Shown here in pieces: positions 303-41,794 of a DNA stretch of 41,794 nt; the first letter of the stretch is position 1; the number at the start of each line of letters is the position of its first letter. Below the pieces are notes generated by a model that was not told the origin of the DNA, did not search any database, and was given only the letters and a program-made list of their open reading frames with translations. Source of the stretch: a virus; the IMG/VR virus record IMGVR_UViG_3300005253_000069, positions 1-41,794 of that record, one strand, 5' to 3'. The translations under genes were made by a program, and so were the position numbers.

Positions 303-653
303 CATCCTCCCCCTTAATTCATCGGATTAACAATAAAAGTATGCAGCACCTTCGGTAGGAGTAACCTCCTCCTAACATCAACCCACTGCATCTTTAGCTC
401 AACAACAAGGTAGTCGAACATTAGATACTTATACTTGTCACAATTCTCATGTGTAATCATTGCATCATCCTTCTAGCCTGCTCTGGCAGGATTCCCCACC
501 ACTGCTCCTCCAGTGATATATAACTGGTCACACTGGGTAGAACTCTCCTCTTTCGAGGTCATCTTTTCCCCTGGTCAAAGCCTTATACCCTTACCTGACG
601 CCAGAACGCCACAGAGCAGGCTATCGTTAATCAATCTTGTCTATAATTACTGC

Positions 654-790
654 TGGAGAGGGAGGGATTCGAACCCTCGAAGTCTTAGTAGCGACAGTAC
701 CCCGCTCTCATAGAGAGCCTCACATGCCTCCGTCTCTGTTTCAAGACGCAGTAAGAGCACCTCCCTTTGACCACTTGGGAGTACCTCTCC
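654..790 (-). tRNA. tRNA-like gene with greatly expanded anticodon/variable region (anticodon not assignable)
   Basis: The reverse complement reads GGAGAGG-TA-CTCC-CAAGTGGTCAAAG-GGAG...(82 nt)...GAGGG-TTCGAAT-CCCTC-CCTCTCC-A. It has a perfect 7-bp acceptor stem, a D arm, a canonical T stem-loop and discriminator A. The D arm and the GACTTCGAGGGTTCGAATCC segment resemble bacterial type-II tRNA-Tyr. A normal tRNA has 23-39 nt between the D and T arms. No CCA is encoded. Confidence 0.55.
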
Positions 791-799
791 AAACTAACC

Positions 800-1171
800 T
801 CACGCACCCAGATAATCTGTCACCTCGTTACTGACCTTCCCTTCATACTCCCTCTGTCCCACTACGGCTGTGAACTCAGCACCAATAGCATCTTCGGTGT
901 TAAAGCTACCATCTTTATTGATAACAACCTTCGCTACCTCCAACAGCTTCTTCACATTCCACAGCGCCTTCGGCTGCAGACTCGTGTTGAAGAACAGATG
1001 CTTGGGCTTAAACTCCCCCTCTATAATCTCCACCTCCCAATGGATGTACTCCTTTCCACTCTCACTCCCTGTAGCCTTTTCAGCCTTCAATATCCTCGAC
1101 AGATACTGCCCTGCTGGTATAGGCTTGGATACATCTTCCACACTGTTTAGGTTTACGCTAATCTTTGGCAT
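800..1171 (-). CDS. DUF669-like phage protein (putative ssDNA-binding partner of Sak4-type ATPase)
   Basis: 123 aa with a strong SD (GGGAGGTGAGTAAGACATG). The pattern PAGQYLSRI..GKEYIHWEVEIIEGEF..HLFFNTSLQPKALWNVKKLL resembles the DUF669 family, which usually sits next to Sak4/AAA_24 genes, as it does here. Confidence 0.6.
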   Translation of the reverse strand: MPKISVNLNSVEDVSKPIPAGQYLSRILKAEKATGSESGKEYIHWEVEIIEGEFKPKHLFFNTSLQPKALWNVKKLLEVAKVVINKDGSFNTEDAIGAEFTAVVGQREYEGKVSNEVTDYLGA

Positions 1172-34803: not shown

Positions 34804-37065
34804 TTACGATACTTCATCCCAAGTCATTCCTTCTTTGATGTCCGCAGGTATCTTAACCTTCCTTCCCTCTACCTCTATCTCAACCTCAACAGCTCGTTTA
34901 ATCATAGCATACAACTCCTCTCTATGTTTGTTTAAGTAGTCCTCATTGATGTTAATAACTATTGCATCGTGTATCTGTAACACAATCCTCGCTTCCCTCG
35001 GCAGACAAAAGTGAAGCCTCGTTAGTCCTATGTTAGTGTAGTCACCCACCGTTGACTGAGGCACGAATGCATATGCCTTCCTAAACATATCAGCCCCCCA
35101 TCTGTCAAAGAACGCCCTCCGTCTACCCAGCGGAGTTGCTAACATCTTAGTTCTCCTCAGCATATTCTCAACCTTCAAGTGCCATATCTTGAGTTTGGGG
35201 TAGGTAGCATAGTAGGTGTTAAGTGCCTTCTTGGAGTCACCATAGCTTAGGCCCGTCAACTTAGAGAACTTCCCATGACCAATAGCATAATTACCTGCAT
35301 GCACCAGCGTCTTCCCCAATCTACGCTGTTCGGATGTTACATCCTTCTCACCTACCCCAAAGATGTTCGAGGCATTCTTCCTGTGAACATCACCACCCTC
35401 TTCAAATATCTTCATGAAGTGGATGTCCTCGCTGAGGTAAGCTACAACTCTAGCCTCAGCCTGACTAAGGTCAACGCCTATAAACTTACACTCCTCGTCA
35501 GGAAGGAAGAAGCTTCGGGCATCACCCTTAGGTACGTTCTGGAGGTTAACATCCTTACTGGCCAACCTCCCAGTGTCGGTGCCTGAGATGATGTAATGTG
35601 TCCTCATCCTCCCATCAGCACAAGGCTTGGCATCAAGGAAGGTTGATTTTAGTGTTCTTATCTCCCTTATCTTAAGAATGAGTCCAAGCACTTTCAGGTT
35701 AAACTTAGCATTCAACTCCTTAAGCGCATCCTTGTTTGTAGTTATCTTTCCCTTCTTATACTTAGGTGGAAGATTGAGCTCCTCATATAGAAACTTAGCC
35801 ACCTGTGGCTTGGAACATACATTCAACGGATGTCCAACAGCTTCCTCCAGCTTGCTCTCCATGTTCTCAATCTTAACTCCTGCATCATCAGATAGCTCTT
35901 GTTTTCGTTTTGCATCTATCCCCACCCCATATCCTTGTATCATCCTTAGAGGTTTAATCAACGGATGCAACACCTGCCTGTAAAATCTATCAACCTTCAG
36001 CTCCTTCATCTCAGCCTCTAGGGCTAATGCCACCTCGAGGGTGACTGCAGCATCTAGGTTACAATACCTCCAGAGGTCGGTTGAACTCATCCATTTGTAG
36101 TATGGTTCGTCAGTATAAATTGATGTCTGAAAATCAAGAGCCTTAGGTAGCTCAGGGTAGCATAGATGGTGAGCATTCATAGTGTCCATCCACAAATCCT
36201 CAACGTGGACACCATGCCTCTCAAGGTGAGCTATGTCAAAGTTAGCGTTTTGGGCAACCTTAGGTATGTCACTCCCCAGGATTTTAGAGATACACCTCCA
36301 AACCTCCATCTCATCAGTGGTTGTTTTCCAATAATCACGCTTCTTATCCCTCGTCAACAGAGGGAAACACCATGACCTCCATGGAGTTATAGCAAATGCG
36401 ATACAAGCTATGTCAGCATCATCCTCAAGTCCACGAGTTTCTATGTCAAAACTAATATACTTAGCACCCTTGAGGATGGTTTCTGTCCACCGCTGGATAG
36501 TATTAACCAGCCTGGGGTCGTCAAACAGTGCTCTAAATGGAGGCTCAAACTCTTGAACGAAGGATTGCTTCTTAGCCTTAGCTAAATCACACACACCTAT
36601 CTGCCTCCACAACCAATTACGCATAATTCCTGCTGGGTGGTAGGTGGGGATTACCTTTACACCACCCAGCTTGGAGGGATAGATAATACTCCCCCTCCAT
36701 TTACCAACACCTACATGTTCTGTAAGTGCCTTCAATGCTTCGTTGCCGAGAGCAACTACAACATTTGGGTTGATTAGCATCAGGTCTTTCACCAACCTAG
36801 CCCTTCCTTCTATCAGTGGAGGCAGAGGTCTAGTCCTCTTCTTATCCTCATAAAAGACTCCGAAGTTATTGCCTGATGGGCGTACTTGCATAACGTTGTC
36901 TACATAACAATCTTCTCTATCAATGCCAGCTTCTACTAGCATCCTATCTAGGAGTTGGCCTGATGTACCTACGAAGGATACACCTTCCCTGTCTTCGTCA
37001 CGGCCTGGTGCTTCACCTATGAGGGCTATGCTAGCATCACGAGGGCCGAAGCCTTTTACTATCAT
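34804..37065 (-). CDS. Family-A DNA polymerase with 3'-5' exonuclease and N-terminal UDG-family-4-like domain
   Basis: 753 aa. UDG-like motifs: LIGEAPGRDEDREGVSFVGTSGQLL and IPTYHPAG. Exo motifs: FDIETRG (I), NANFDIAHL (II), YCNLDAAVT (III). Pol motifs: DLSQAEARVVAY (A), RRLGKTLVHAGNYAIG (B), LQIHDAIV (C). Confidence 0.9.
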   Translation of the reverse strand: MIVKGFGPRDASIALIGEAPGRDEDREGVSFVGTSGQLLDRMLVEAGIDREDCYVDNVMQVRPSGNNFGVFYEDKKRTRPLPPLIEGRARLVKDLMLINPNVVVALGNEALKALTEHVGVGKWRGSIIYPSKLGGVKVIPTYHPAGIMRNWLWRQIGVCDLAKAKKQSFVQEFEPPFRALFDDPRLVNTIQRWTETILKGAKYISFDIETRGLEDDADIACIAFAITPWRSWCFPLLTRDKKRDYWKTTTDEMEVWRCISKILGSDIPKVAQNANFDIAHLERHGVHVEDLWMDTMNAHHLCYPELPKALDFQTSIYTDEPYYKWMSSTDLWRYCNLDAAVTLEVALALEAEMKELKVDRFYRQVLHPLIKPLRMIQGYGVGIDAKRKQELSDDAGVKIENMESKLEEAVGHPLNVCSKPQVAKFLYEELNLPPKYKKGKITTNKDALKELNAKFNLKVLGLILKIREIRTLKSTFLDAKPCADGRMRTHYIISGTDTGRLASKDVNLQNVPKGDARSFFLPDEECKFIGVDLSQAEARVVAYLSEDIHFMKIFEEGGDVHRKNASNIFGVGEKDVTSEQRRLGKTLVHAGNYAIGHGKFSKLTGLSYGDSKKALNTYYATYPKLKIWHLKVENMLRRTKMLATPLGRRRAFFDRWGADMFRKAYAFVPQSTVGDYTNIGLTRLHFCLPREARIVLQIHDAIVININEDYLNKHREELYAMIKRAVEVEIEVEGRKVKIPADIKEGMTWDEVS

Positions 37066-37243: not shown

Positions 37244-37471
37244 CTAATGTGCCACAATTATCTTCTTCCTCGGTGGAGCAACAACCTGCATCTCCGACAC
37301 CTGCCCCCTGGCATCTCTAACCTTCAACACAATATCATCCCCACTCCACCCACATTCCATAGTTACCATCGAGTCCTTAAAGGCGAGACTCATCCTTCGA
37401 TGCTGTTTATCAAGTGCTACACTAACTATGATGTGTGCGGAGGCTTTAGCCAGTTCTTGGATTGGTATCAT
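37244..37471 (-). CDS. Hypothetical protein
   Basis: 75-aa ORF coupled to the methyltransferase stop (ATGA). Confidence 0.5.
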   Translation of the reverse strand: MIPIQELAKASAHIIVSVALDKQHRRMSLAFKDSMVTMECGWSGDDIVLKVRDARGQVSEMQVVAPPRKKIIVAH

Positions 37472-38724
37472 TTTTCTACTCCTAACCGTCTCATACGCTC
37501 ACATATCCCATTATAACTATCCTTATCCTTCTCAACAAGGATACAATCTCTCTTAGCCCTCAGTGCAGCCTCACCAACACACCCACTTCCAGCAAAGGGG
37601 TCGAGTACAAGCTCACCAGGAAGTGTAGATGTCTCTATCAACACCTGCATCAACGCCACTGGCTTCTCGGTTGGATGTATCCTTAGTCTAGAGGGTACAA
37701 TCTTATAGCTCAGGACATCCAGTGGATTCCTATTCAGCGGTCTACTCCCCTTCATACAATGCAGGATACCCTCATAAGACCTACTCCAATCCTCAGGATT
37801 AGCTGCAGAACTTGAAGTACCCTTACTCCATATAAGGAGTATGTCATCAACATCAAAACCAGCCTCCTTAAGAAGCTTAGTAATGTCTTTCTTCCTTGCG
37901 CTAGCGATAAAGACATACGCATGCCTATCATCCTTGAGGTTGTTATACATAGCTTTGAATGCTCCCCTCAACATATCATCAGTCTCATACTCTCTATCCT
38001 CAAAGATTTCATCTCGCTTAAACTTCTTGTAGGCTTTACCGCTTGTAGGTAGGTCAACCCCATATGGAGGATCAGTAAGCACAAGGTCAGCCTTCACCTT
38101 CAACTTTGGGACAATTACCCTGCAATCCCCCAGATGAACATCATCAACAGGCTCAGCATTAGCTAGTCTTTTCTGTATCTCAGTCTGAATGGCCTGTTCC
38201 TTAAGCCTCTTCATCTTCTTGAACGCAGCGGTTTTAGTCTTCTCATCCTTGAGCTGAGGATACATCCCTAGCCCCTTAGCCAGCTGTATATCCATACTAA
38301 CCTGCCCCATGCTCTCACCCAGGGATGTCGCAGTATCCTTCACGCCCCACCCATCACTCTTATGCCCCTTAGTGGCTGTGCCATAGATGGACTTCTTGAT
38401 GCTGTCAAGGAGTAGCTTAGCCTGTACCTCCTCCTGCCACGTAAACGCCTTCCTCTTAATATTCTCCTCAAGCTCAATCTCAGCACGTTCCATCTCACTA
38501 AGGTTCTTCAGCTCATTGACCTCAATCTCCTCAAGGCCTAAATACAGATGTGCCTTGAACCTCCTCTCCCCCGCAACCAGCTCCCACTCACCTCCATTGT
38601 CTTTGTTAACAACGATGGGGTGGAGTAAGCCATACTTCTGGATTGATTGAGCTAGCCCAGTGATGTCACCATACTCCTCTCTTACTCTCTTACCTACTTT
38701 GATGTCAGCTAGTTTTAGTTTCAT
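37468..38724 (-). CDS. ParB-like nuclease domain fused to beta-class N6A/N4C DNA methyltransferase
   Basis: 418 aa. The N-terminal ParB/Srx-type segment is LAQSIQKYGLLHPIVV...LVAGERRFKA. The methyltransferase has motif IV LVLTDPPYG before motif I LDPFAGSGCVGEAA, which is the beta-class order. Confidence 0.9.
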   Translation of the reverse strand: MKLKLADIKVGKRVREEYGDITGLAQSIQKYGLLHPIVVNKDNGGEWELVAGERRFKAHLYLGLEEIEVNELKNLSEMERAEIELEENIKRKAFTWQEEVQAKLLLDSIKKSIYGTATKGHKSDGWGVKDTATSLGESMGQVSMDIQLAKGLGMYPQLKDEKTKTAAFKKMKRLKEQAIQTEIQKRLANAEPVDDVHLGDCRVIVPKLKVKADLVLTDPPYGVDLPTSGKAYKKFKRDEIFEDREYETDDMLRGAFKAMYNNLKDDRHAYVFIASARKKDITKLLKEAGFDVDDILLIWSKGTSSSAANPEDWSRSYEGILHCMKGSRPLNRNPLDVLSYKIVPSRLRIHPTEKPVALMQVLIETSTLPGELVLDPFAGSGCVGEAALRAKRDCILVEKDKDSYNGICERMRRLGVEK

Positions 38725-41534: not shown

Positions 41535-41794
41535 TTCATCTCCTTCCTCAACTTATCAACAGCGTCATAAACTGCCGCGATGCGGGATTTGCCCTCAGCC
41601 TTAATTTTGTGACTATATCCAGATATTCGACAAGTCACTTTACCTATCAATTCACCCCAATTCCTTCTACTTACTTCTATCCAATACCCCGCCTTTTCCA
41701 ATATCTCCTCGATTACCTCCCATTCGAGGATGGGGATAGCATCTTCATGAAGTTTATAAAAGGATTTGCCGCACTCATAAGGCTTCTCCTTAAC
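41531..41794 (-). CDS. C-terminal part of the junction-spanning ORF (continues from 1-302)
   Basis: Reads ...ILEWEVIEEILEKAGYWIEVSRRNWGELIGKVTCRISGYSHKIKAEGKSRIAAVYDAVDKLRKEMK*. The TGA (41531-41533) overlaps the ATG of the lysin gene. The total circular ORF is 163-164 aa. Confidence 0.6.
   Translation of the reverse strand, partial: VKEKPYECGKSFYKLHEDAIPILEWEVIEEILEKAGYWIEVSRRNWGELIGKVTCRISGYSHKIKAEGKSRIAAVYDAVDKLRKEMK
41721..41794. repeat. Terminal direct repeat, copy 2
   Basis: Identical to bases 1-74. Confidence 0.95.

Follow-up and report, generated by a model that had tools for sequence, protein, structure and literature searches.

In recent years, the tRNAs that phages encode have been tied to conflicts with defence systems that cut tRNA, some of which are specific for tRNA-Tyr. 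Both Septu PtuAB and retron-Eco7 cleave tRNA-Tyr in its variable arm, the variable loop of the phage tRNA matters, and phage tRNA-Tyr has been discussed as a supplement or as a decoy (PMC13096335, PMC11555353). Here we describe a tRNA-like gene of 137 nt that is carried by a marine-sediment phage and that shares the tRNA-Tyr body with the tRNAs that T5-like phages and T6 set against retron-Eco7 or Septu PtuAB. Those phage tRNAs decode, whereas the element has no anticodon and is likened to them by its body alone. It is encoded on the minus strand at positions 654-790 of IMG/VR record IMGVR_UViG_3300005253_000069, which was analysed as one complete stretch of 41,794 nt (the window); nucleotide n of the RNA corresponds to window position 791-n. 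From the comparisons described below, we consider it somewhat better than an even bet, with a probability of about 55%, that the element is a non-decoding small RNA which is derived from a bacterial type-II tRNA-Tyr and acts as a mimic or scaffold.

A phage-encoded RNA of similar size is species 1 RNA of phage T4 (rnaC), which is stable and 139 nt long. In rnaC, a canonical T arm (CCGGG-UUCGAAU-CCCGG) carries a stem that resembles an acceptor and is stacked on it, long hairpins replace the decoding part, and the annotation gives no function. However, the two RNAs have no sequence relationship (rnaC scores 18 bits with R1, a covariance model of the element that is introduced below), rnaC is without a recognisable Tyr-type D arm and variable arm, both of which the element has, and it is located within a tRNA gene cluster, whereas the element is the only tRNA-like gene of its 42-kb phage. 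The transfer-messenger RNA (tmRNA) is built on the same plan as the element, in that acceptor and T arm are kept and a functional domain replaces the anticodon arm, but the element differs by the absence of G3-U70, a tag frame and pseudoknots, and by its length of only 137 nt. Bacterial Y RNAs such as YrlA contain a tRNA-like domain, serve as substrates of tRNA enzymes, are bound by Ro60/Rsr, and occur also in phages (PMC4201824). Like the element, YrlA is a non-coding RNA with a tRNA-like domain; unlike the element, it is encoded next to the gene for Ro60 (TROVE) and has a long stem that bears the Ro60-binding site. A YrlA or Y RNA identity was considered for the element and rejected, as there is no TROVE/Ro60 gene among the phage genes scanned, the RNA ends are formed by the acceptor stem, and Rfam gives no match. 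Engineered tRNA scaffolds follow the same design, with a structured RNA grafted on the anticodon stem, and such constructs are correctly processed and resist nucleases, but they are man-made; we know of no description of a natural counterpart in phages. A paper from this line of work is PMC3753655. Judged from its sequence, the element belongs to none of the families with which it was compared, since in each case it fails on a defining feature.

The element could be compared with homologues because contigs with homologues of the adjacent gene, which encodes a DUF669 protein resembling single-stranded DNA-binding proteins (SSB-like), were taken from public marine-sediment and seawater metagenome assemblies. 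Three sequence variants were found, of 137, 140 and 139 nt. The variant of the window is represented by the loci L002, L003 and L005 and partially by L004, the second variant is that of L011, and the third is that of L012, which a metagenome scan also found in identical form in L041 and L042. Every variant is located directly downstream of the DUF669 gene. A preliminary description of the window had proposed a tRNA-like gene at this place, with acceptor, D and T arms and a discriminator A, and both its sequence and its coordinates are exact.

The acceptor stem is formed by GGAGAGG (nt 1-7, window positions 784-790) and CCTCTCC (nt 130-136), with all seven pairs formed and invariant; the 3' strand together with the discriminator A (nt 137) occupies positions 654-661. 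A CCA end is not encoded, and the base preceding G1 is U in all four of the different 5' leaders. The D arm, CTCCC-AAGTGGTCAAA-GGGAG (nt 10-30, positions 761-781), has kept A14, G15 and G18-G19, and its stem is 2 bp longer than that of a normal tRNA-Tyr. At the other side of the molecule, a T arm with a canonical loop (GAGGG-TTCGAAT-CCCTC, nt 113-129, positions 662-678) is preceded by a long variable arm (nt 95-112, positions 679-696), which consists of a GTC/GAC stem and an enlarged, nearly invariant loop of 8 nt (GCTACTAA; GCUACURA among the variants). All nucleotides of the elbow and core of a tRNA are present: U8, A14, G15 with C48, G18-G19, G53-C61 and the T loop. The D and T arms are separated by 82 nt, as had been proposed.

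It is in this interior that the element departs from a tRNA. The equivalent of the anticodon stem, formed by GTGCTCT (nt 31-37, positions 754-760) and GGGGTAC (nt 88-94, positions 697-703), closes a branched insert of 54 nt in all three variants instead of a 7-nt loop, which agrees with the earlier remark that no anticodon can be read. The insert takes the shape of a three-way junction, with an invariant hairpin and its flanks on one side and a covarying hairpin on the other, and with junction strands of 2, 9 and 0 nt, of which the 9-nt strand is not conserved. An invariant core of 33 nt, TCTTACTGCGTCTTGAAACAGAGACGGAGGCAT (nt 35-67, positions 724-756), includes a single-stranded CUUACUG where the anticodon loop would be, as well as hairpin 1 and GGAGGCAU. 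Hairpin 1, CGTCT(T)-GAAACA-(G)AGACG (nt 43-60, positions 731-748), is formed in the predicted folds of all three variants; it is extended by C40-G63 and U41-A62 and measures 18-24 nt overall, with a loop of the GAAACA type. The anticodon-stem equivalent carries hairpin 2, GCTCTC-TAT-GAGAGC (nt 73-87, positions 704-718), stacked directly on its 3' strand. In the fold of minimum free energy (-57 kcal/mol, z = -2.8 relative to dinucleotide shuffles), the whole RNA adopts a cloverleaf-like structure in which the helix 31-37/88-94 opens into the two hairpins; the folds of two homologues gave z values of -3.45 and -2.8. The 7-nt CUUACUG includes the tyrosine codon UAC and is complementary to five of the seven positions of the tRNA-Tyr anticodon loop, a suggestive detail that was noticed post hoc and is not relied on.

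The kinship with tRNA-Tyr, which the preliminary description had noted in the D arm and the 3' segment, is borne out by two kinds of search. When the element was compared by blastn with a phage collection after deletion of the insert, the only near-full-length matches were annotated tRNA-Tyr genes. Furthermore, a covariance model (R1) was built from the three variants and applied to loci chosen by hand. Members of the family scored 164-168 bits (164 bits for the element of the window), and among the hand-chosen loci the best matches outside the family were L060 and L065 with 53-55 bits, while other tRNAs reached at most 36 bits. These two loci, by-products of a genome scan, are normal tRNA-Tyr(GUA) genes that have the acceptor stem and discriminator of the element and the T arm of the L011 and L012 variants. 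They align to R1 from end to end, with their 7-nt anticodon loop opposite 54 model positions and with five fewer nucleotides in the variable loop and two to three fewer in the D arm.

A direct comparison with bacterial type-II tRNA-Tyr (GUA) leads to the same picture. The acceptor stem, A73, the type of the D loop and the T arm are alike, as is the variable arm, with its GxC/GxC stem followed by UUCG. Differences are found in the anticodon region, where the tRNA has a 7-nt loop with an anticodon and the element has 54 nt without one, in the variable loop (8 nt in the element as compared to 3 nt), and in the D stem with its 2 additional bp. The tRNA-Tyr features A73, G1-C72, a long variable arm and a Tyr-type D loop are all present, and a GUA anticodon was not found in a loop context anywhere in the element. 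The GGUAC of the window forms the 3' side of a stem; L011 and L012 have GCUAC instead, and the opposite strand has changed in compensation. The end-to-end alignment, the blastn matches and the elbow nucleotides taken together show that the body of the predicted RNA is of the bacterial type-II tRNA-Tyr type, with three differences: the anticodon loop is replaced by a three-way junction, the D stem is longer by two pairs, and the variable loop is enlarged and nearly invariant.

Whether such an unusual sequence is a decaying tRNA gene or a functional RNA can be judged from the way it has changed. At the third codon positions of the adjacent gene, the three lineages are only 45-57% identical. In the RNA gene, differences were counted at 3-5 of the 36 positions that make up the 5' body and at 2-9 of the 50 that make up the 3' body, and there are none at all in the 33-nt core (33 of 33 positions identical among the three variants). 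The 38 predicted pairs are formed in 99.1% of the cells of the three-sequence alignment, and five of them show compensatory changes: the anticodon-stem equivalent has one such pair (C-G to G-C), as do the variable arm (U-A to C-G) and hairpin 2, and the T arm has two (GAGGG/CCCTC to GGAGG/CCTCC). In a control in which the partners were slid by 1-3 columns, 0-1 compensatory pairs and 51-63% pairing were obtained. The sequence of hairpin 2 is replaced in each variant, being GCUCUC/GAGAGC in the window, GCUUC/GAAGC in L011 and UGCUC/GAGCA in L012, but a hairpin is always formed. Four conserved G-U pairs are valid only in the RNA of the minus strand, and the three that fall within the anticodon-stem equivalent suggest that the RNA is read from this strand. 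A conserved reading frame is excluded by the lengths of 137, 140 and 139 nt.

Conservation and covariation in related genomes had been put forward beforehand as a test of the proposed gene, and both are present; support from a covariance model had been suggested as well, and here no Rfam model reaches its threshold. The helices proposed for the interior fared differently. The one at nt 31-35/90-94 is supported by the C-G to G-C change and can be extended to 7 bp, and that at nt 73-78/82-87 by the replacement of its sequence with retention of the hairpin. The helix at nt 43-47/56-60 folds in all three variants, but as hairpin 1 is invariant, covariation is silent about it. The fourth helix, CTTAC with GTGAG at nt 36-40/68-72, has to be abandoned, since its partner strand is ACAAG in L011 and TTGTT in L012. 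Altogether, although the statistics from three sequences are modest, the pattern of change indicates that the element is under purifying selection as a minus-strand RNA and that its most constrained part is located inside the insert.

This leaves little room for the idea of a degenerate tRNA, one of three explanations offered at the outset, or for the related one of a function at the level of DNA, be it as an attP tRNA fragment, as a protein-binding site or as an origin. It is true that tRNA finders do not call the element and that it behaves as an insertion/deletion cassette among relatives. However, conservation of the element is strong although neutral sites are close to saturation, four helices contain compensatory changes, and the G-U pairs make sense in the minus-strand RNA only; for neither a promoter inside the element nor a function of the DNA itself was a supporting motif found. 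A degenerate tRNA is rejected on two grounds: conservation of the gene is highest within the insert, and its helices covary. An attP fragment would be expected to consist of a tRNA 3' part alone, whereas both halves are present and paired here, and there is no integrase among the genes scanned in the complete 41.7-kb genome. We regard these explanations as largely refuted.

The programs that are commonly used for finding tRNAs miss the element. ARAGORN found 0 tRNAs and 0 tmRNAs in the whole window, and Rfam gave nothing at gathering score for the element; at E<=10, the Rfam matches were limited to the T arm and the 3' part of the acceptor stem, one of them running into downstream sequence. 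In its intron mode at default settings, ARAGORN found nothing in any of the three variants, and with relaxed settings (-i) the calls were mutually inconsistent: Ser(act) for the window, Leu(aag) for L011 and Leu(gag) for L012. A 5-bp stem with a 7-nt loop and U33 has no conserved instance in the element.

These results bear on the second of the original explanations, an intron-containing phage tRNA. In that case, an insert of 47-54 nt would be excised and the halves would be ligated by enzymes of the host or by unknown ones, yielding a type-II tRNA about 90 nt in length, whose loop CUUAC(G/U)G would place the anticodon UAC on a Tyr-type body. The insert is indeed placed exactly at the anticodon-loop position, the C and U that follow the 5-bp stem correspond to the canonical C32-U33, a GG precedes the 3' strand in three of three variants, and the window sequence is accepted as a tRNA by ARAGORN at default settings once the insert has been deleted. 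Type-II tRNA genes with short inserts are also found in other viral contigs, one of which (L161) has an intron at the canonical position 37/38 and a motif resembling a bulge-helix-bulge (BHB), the structure searched for as a splicing signal. In the element, on the other hand, no conserved BHB motif was found that would leave a sensible tRNA: a script that recovered L161 as a positive control detected only arrangements that delete the 3' strand of the anticodon stem. This search also revealed that CUUA (nt 36-39) could pair with a UAAG of the variable loop, but as this pairing conflicts with two covarying helices, it is an alternative fold at most. A canonical intron at 37/38 would make position 37 a U. 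The D stem is lengthened, and the bodies of L011 and L012 are rejected as tRNA by ARAGORN even when a perfect Tyr loop is grafted on them.

There is also no evident way in which such an intron would be removed. The catalytic core of a group I intron (P3-P9) normally requires at least about 200 nt, while the insert is 54 nt, too short for an intron of this kind, and Intron_gpI had no match at E<=10. Self-cleaving ribozymes (hammerhead, twister, pistol, hatchet, HDV-like) gave no Rfam match at E<=10 either, and a hammerhead, considered separately, was rejected because junction strands of 2, 9 and 0 nt, of which that of 9 nt is unconserved, are unfit for its core. The host appears to be bacterial, as suggested by a SleB-type cell-wall hydrolase that the phage encodes; to our knowledge, no protein-based tRNA-splicing pathway exists in bacteria, and there is neither an RNA ligase nor an endonuclease among the phage proteins scanned. 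Finally, the putative exons are less well conserved than the 33 nt at the 5' side of the insert, which are invariant, the opposite of what is expected of a passively removed intron, and this weighs against splicing. An intron-containing tRNA is therefore disfavoured, and we consider it decidedly unlikely.

Three of the viral genes that came to light are worth recording in their own right. One is a type-II tRNA-like gene of 130 nt in the 150-kb IMG/VR phage contig L152 (1067-1198, minus strand), at a locus that also has 17 tRNA genes, a normal tRNA-Tyr among them. About 46 nt are inserted in this gene between a U33-like base and a GUAAA that immediately precedes the anticodon stem's 3' strand. 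The gene is missed by ARAGORN, also in intron mode, has no BHB motif and scores 36 bits with R1. The gene in the AT-rich IMG/VR contig L161 (4603-4719, minus strand) is a type-II tRNA gene of 117 nt with a Tyr-like D loop, which the intron mode of ARAGORN reads as tRNA-Leu(UAA) with a 36-nt intron; it may be the tRNA of an archaeal virus, with an intron of the archaeal type. In the GC-rich 187-kb IMG/VR contig L001 (3421-3538, minus strand), a type-II tRNA-like gene of 118 nt has an anticodon-type stem that encloses 22 nt, a very long variable arm and inconsistent ARAGORN calls. Its neighbours are tRNA genes; one of these, a tRNA-Pyl (anticodon cta) according to ARAGORN, may be an amber suppressor.

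Since the element has kept the tyrosine identity features that lie outside the anticodon (A73, G1-C72 and the long variable arm), it might be thought to be charged by tyrosyl-tRNA synthetase (TyrRS) and directed to the ribosome, comparable to a miniature tmRNA or a translation modulator. Such an RNA would enter the ribosome, bind the 30S subunit by means of a GGAGG, or donate tyrosine to a non-ribosomal acceptor. A Shine-Dalgarno-like GGAGG is present inside the invariant core, and the tmRNA model of Rfam aligns both ends of L012, joined by a large internal deletion, with 17 bits. The scores of 17-18 bits with this model are, however, far from the gathering score of 47, the tmRNA mode of ARAGORN (-m) was negative, and the acceptor stem has A3-U70 and not G3-U70; for these reasons and for want of a conserved tag reading frame, a tmRNA was rejected. 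A mini-ORF or tmRNA-like tag following the GGAGG was rejected as well: it starts 1 nt from this sequence and consists of AUG-UGA in the window and of five codons and a stop in L011 and L012, and the peptides are not conserved across variants. With GGAGG, only 5 nt are complementary to the anti-Shine-Dalgarno sequence, and an aminoacyl-transferase-like gene was not detected among the genes scanned. A charged, ribosome-directed RNA seems very unlikely to us.

The genomic surroundings of the element suggest how it could be expressed. The window starts and ends with an exact direct repeat of 74 nt (positions 1-74 and 41721-41794), which indicates a complete, circularly assembled genome of about 41.7 kb. 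It is the genome of a tailed phage, which encodes, besides the SleB-type hydrolase, a primase/helicase and a recombination module composed of a PD-(D/E)XK nuclease, an AAA_24 ATPase and the DUF669 SSB-like protein. The gene for the latter (positions 800-1171, minus strand) is upstream of the RNA, which starts on the same strand 9 nt past the stop codon, and no promoter-like or terminator-like site was found between the two or nearby. In L011 and L012, the element ends about 15-20 nt ahead of the ribosome-binding site of the next gene. The surrounding region had been described as an ORF-free island from 306 to 799; this holds for positions 461-799, but not for the remainder, as an ORF of 48 amino acids (aa) at 314-460 is conserved in all related phages.

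With such an arrangement, the element could in principle be a cis-acting processing or stability signal, a kind of punctuation that recruits RNase P and RNase Z, either to separate the mRNA of the recombination operon from the downstream message or to shield the upstream message at its 3' end. The RNA that is excised would then be without a function of its own. The short distance from the DUF669 stop codon and, in L011 and L012, to the next ribosome-binding site, the absence of a promoter-like or terminator-like site nearby and the conserved U at position -1 would all fit. Yet, punctuation needs no more than a minihelix of acceptor and T arm, which leaves the invariant 33-nt module, the enlarged variable loop and the full Tyr-type body unexplained, and close relatives with the same gene order do without it. 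For these reasons a purely cis-acting role appears rather unlikely.

The relatives that do without the element define its boundaries. It is absent from L006-L010, from L043-L047 and from the more distant L173-L179, as found both by reading the sequences and with R1. In L006 and L007, the DUF669 protein is 99% identical to that of the window and the third codon positions of its gene are 85% identical. Alignment with L006 and L046, in which the site is otherwise collinear, delimits a cassette of about 159 nt (positions 638-796, minus strand) that contains the RNA gene, a few leader nucleotides and about 17 trailer nucleotides. The clean pattern of presence and absence among relatives indicates that the element is an optional cassette that is confined to one small phage group. 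In the available flanks, no protein gene was found that co-occurs with it.

Searches outside this group also point to a narrow distribution. The region had nothing similar in annotated phage genomes (blastn), pattern scans of IMG/VR gave no copy of the element, and a gapped core pattern had 0 matches in IMG/VR. Exact matches to 21-mers of the core were absent from the GTDB representatives, one genome each of 185,579 species, and the only two exact copies of a core 21-mer in the metagenome set were both the element itself. The core sequence had no match in a literature search. In a second scan of genomes, all that was returned were tRNA-Ser and tRNA-Tyr genes of the ordinary kind, which had the upstream motif by chance and proved of use for comparison. 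A CRISPR-repeat mimic (RNA anti-CRISPR), suggested by the repeat-like length and shape, was rejected since exact matches to the core occur in no sampled genome and in no metagenome contig apart from those with the element. When the phage genome was examined for an antisense target, no outlier emerged except the element's own complement.

For the 16-mer of hairpin 1, GTCTTGAAACAGAGAC, there were 28 unrelated matches in IMG/VR, about as many as chance would be expected to produce. Judging from L014, the largest group that recurs among them is formed by HEARO RNA, an RNA associated with HNH-endonuclease (IscB-type) elements: L014 9459-9680 matches Rfam RF02033 with 93 bits, and L015, L018, L022, L023, L030, L034 and L036-L038 resemble it by sequence similarity. 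The GTCTTGAAACAGAGAC hairpin is in a sequence-variable part of HEARO, and the match is therefore judged to be due to chance.

Of the three explanations offered at the outset, that of a tRNA-derived regulatory or decoy RNA fits best. For the non-decoding tRNA-Tyr mimic or scaffold that we favour, the following sequence of events can be envisaged. The RNA would be transcribed together with the recombination operon, as suggested by the 9-nt gap and the lack of a promoter-like or terminator-like site, and then be excised by the tRNA-processing enzymes of the host. U is the preferred base at position -1 for bacterial RNase P, which would cut before G1, next to the conserved U. At the other end, trimming after A73 would be followed by addition of CCA. 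The product would accumulate as a stable, L-shaped RNA that has no ability to read codons. In this form it would most likely act by molecular mimicry: thanks to its tRNA-Tyr body it would be processed, be stable and be recognised by a host factor concerned with tRNA-Tyr, and the invariant module and the enlarged variable loop would form a surface that binds or blocks this factor. As to the identity of the target, our leading guess is an anti-phage nuclease that attacks tRNA-Tyr in its variable arm, as Septu/PtuAB and retron-Eco7 do, but TyrRS or another factor that binds tRNA-Tyr would be equally possible candidates. It is conceivable, though on balance unlikely, that the element is the first example of a class of non-decoding phage tRNA-Tyr mimics that serve as decoys or inhibitors of a tRNA-Tyr-targeting immune nuclease or of some other tRNA-Tyr-specific factor.

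Several points weigh against such a mimic. Rescue of T5-like phages from retron-Eco7 needed an intact anticodon (PMC11555353), which implies that a non-decoding RNA could act only as a sponge or inhibitor and not as a supplement. A precise excision could bring together the flanks of the insert, CUUAC (5') and GG (3'), in a canonical-looking loop CUUACGG, the insert-deleted window sequence passes as a tRNA with ARAGORN, and L161 illustrates that tRNA genes with short introns do occur in viral contigs. The element is dispensable, given its absence from close relatives. With three variants only, the covariation statistics are thin, and the invariant hairpin 1 is without covariation support.

The vicinity of the element contains further sequences that may be of interest. 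Between the tRNA-like gene and the 48-aa ORF, at positions 474-623 of the minus strand, there is a second conserved RNA structure. It has an 11-bp closing helix (TAGCCTGCTCT / AGAGCAGGCTA) with one compensatory change and one change from G-C to G-U, and conserved hairpins at both ends (596-611 and 485-500); its interior of 50-140 nt is an entirely different sequence in L006 and L046, and the structure matches no Rfam family. A further conserved long hairpin occurs just past the DUF669 stop codon in L011 (2880-2945), L043 (1790-1890) and L047 (505-573), with the sequence CCTACCC(T)TTTGTAAGTGTG ... CACAAAGGGGAGTAGAGAGGGTAG and a variable interior. Structured RNAs and small ORFs seem to have a hot spot in the interval from the DUF669 gene to the 48-aa gene. 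Elsewhere in the genome, an ORF of 163 aa spans the junction of the window ends, and two genes on the minus strand encode fusion proteins. The first (34804-37065) is a DNA polymerase A with an N-terminal uracil-DNA-glycosylase domain, in which a 3'-5' exonuclease domain is also present, and the second (37468-38724) combines a ParB-N domain with an N6/N4 DNA methylase; both genes are also found in the distant relative L173.

In the context of phage tRNAs and the defences directed against them, the element is an unusually clean case, with an unmistakable tRNA-Tyr body in which the decoding loop is replaced by an invariant module, and with the whole present as a single optional cassette. Being one clean cassette in a small genome, present in some relatives and absent from others, it is directly accessible to experiment. 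The interest will be chiefly for specialists in tRNA and phage defence, and it is tempered by the narrow distribution and the small number of three variants. If the RNA is spliced after all, it would point to a new route of tRNA splicing in a bacterial virus. If it is indeed a mimic, it would add an RNA-based, tRNA-scaffolded strategy to the means by which phages counter host defence, and would at the same time provide a natural counterpart of the engineered tRNA scaffolds.

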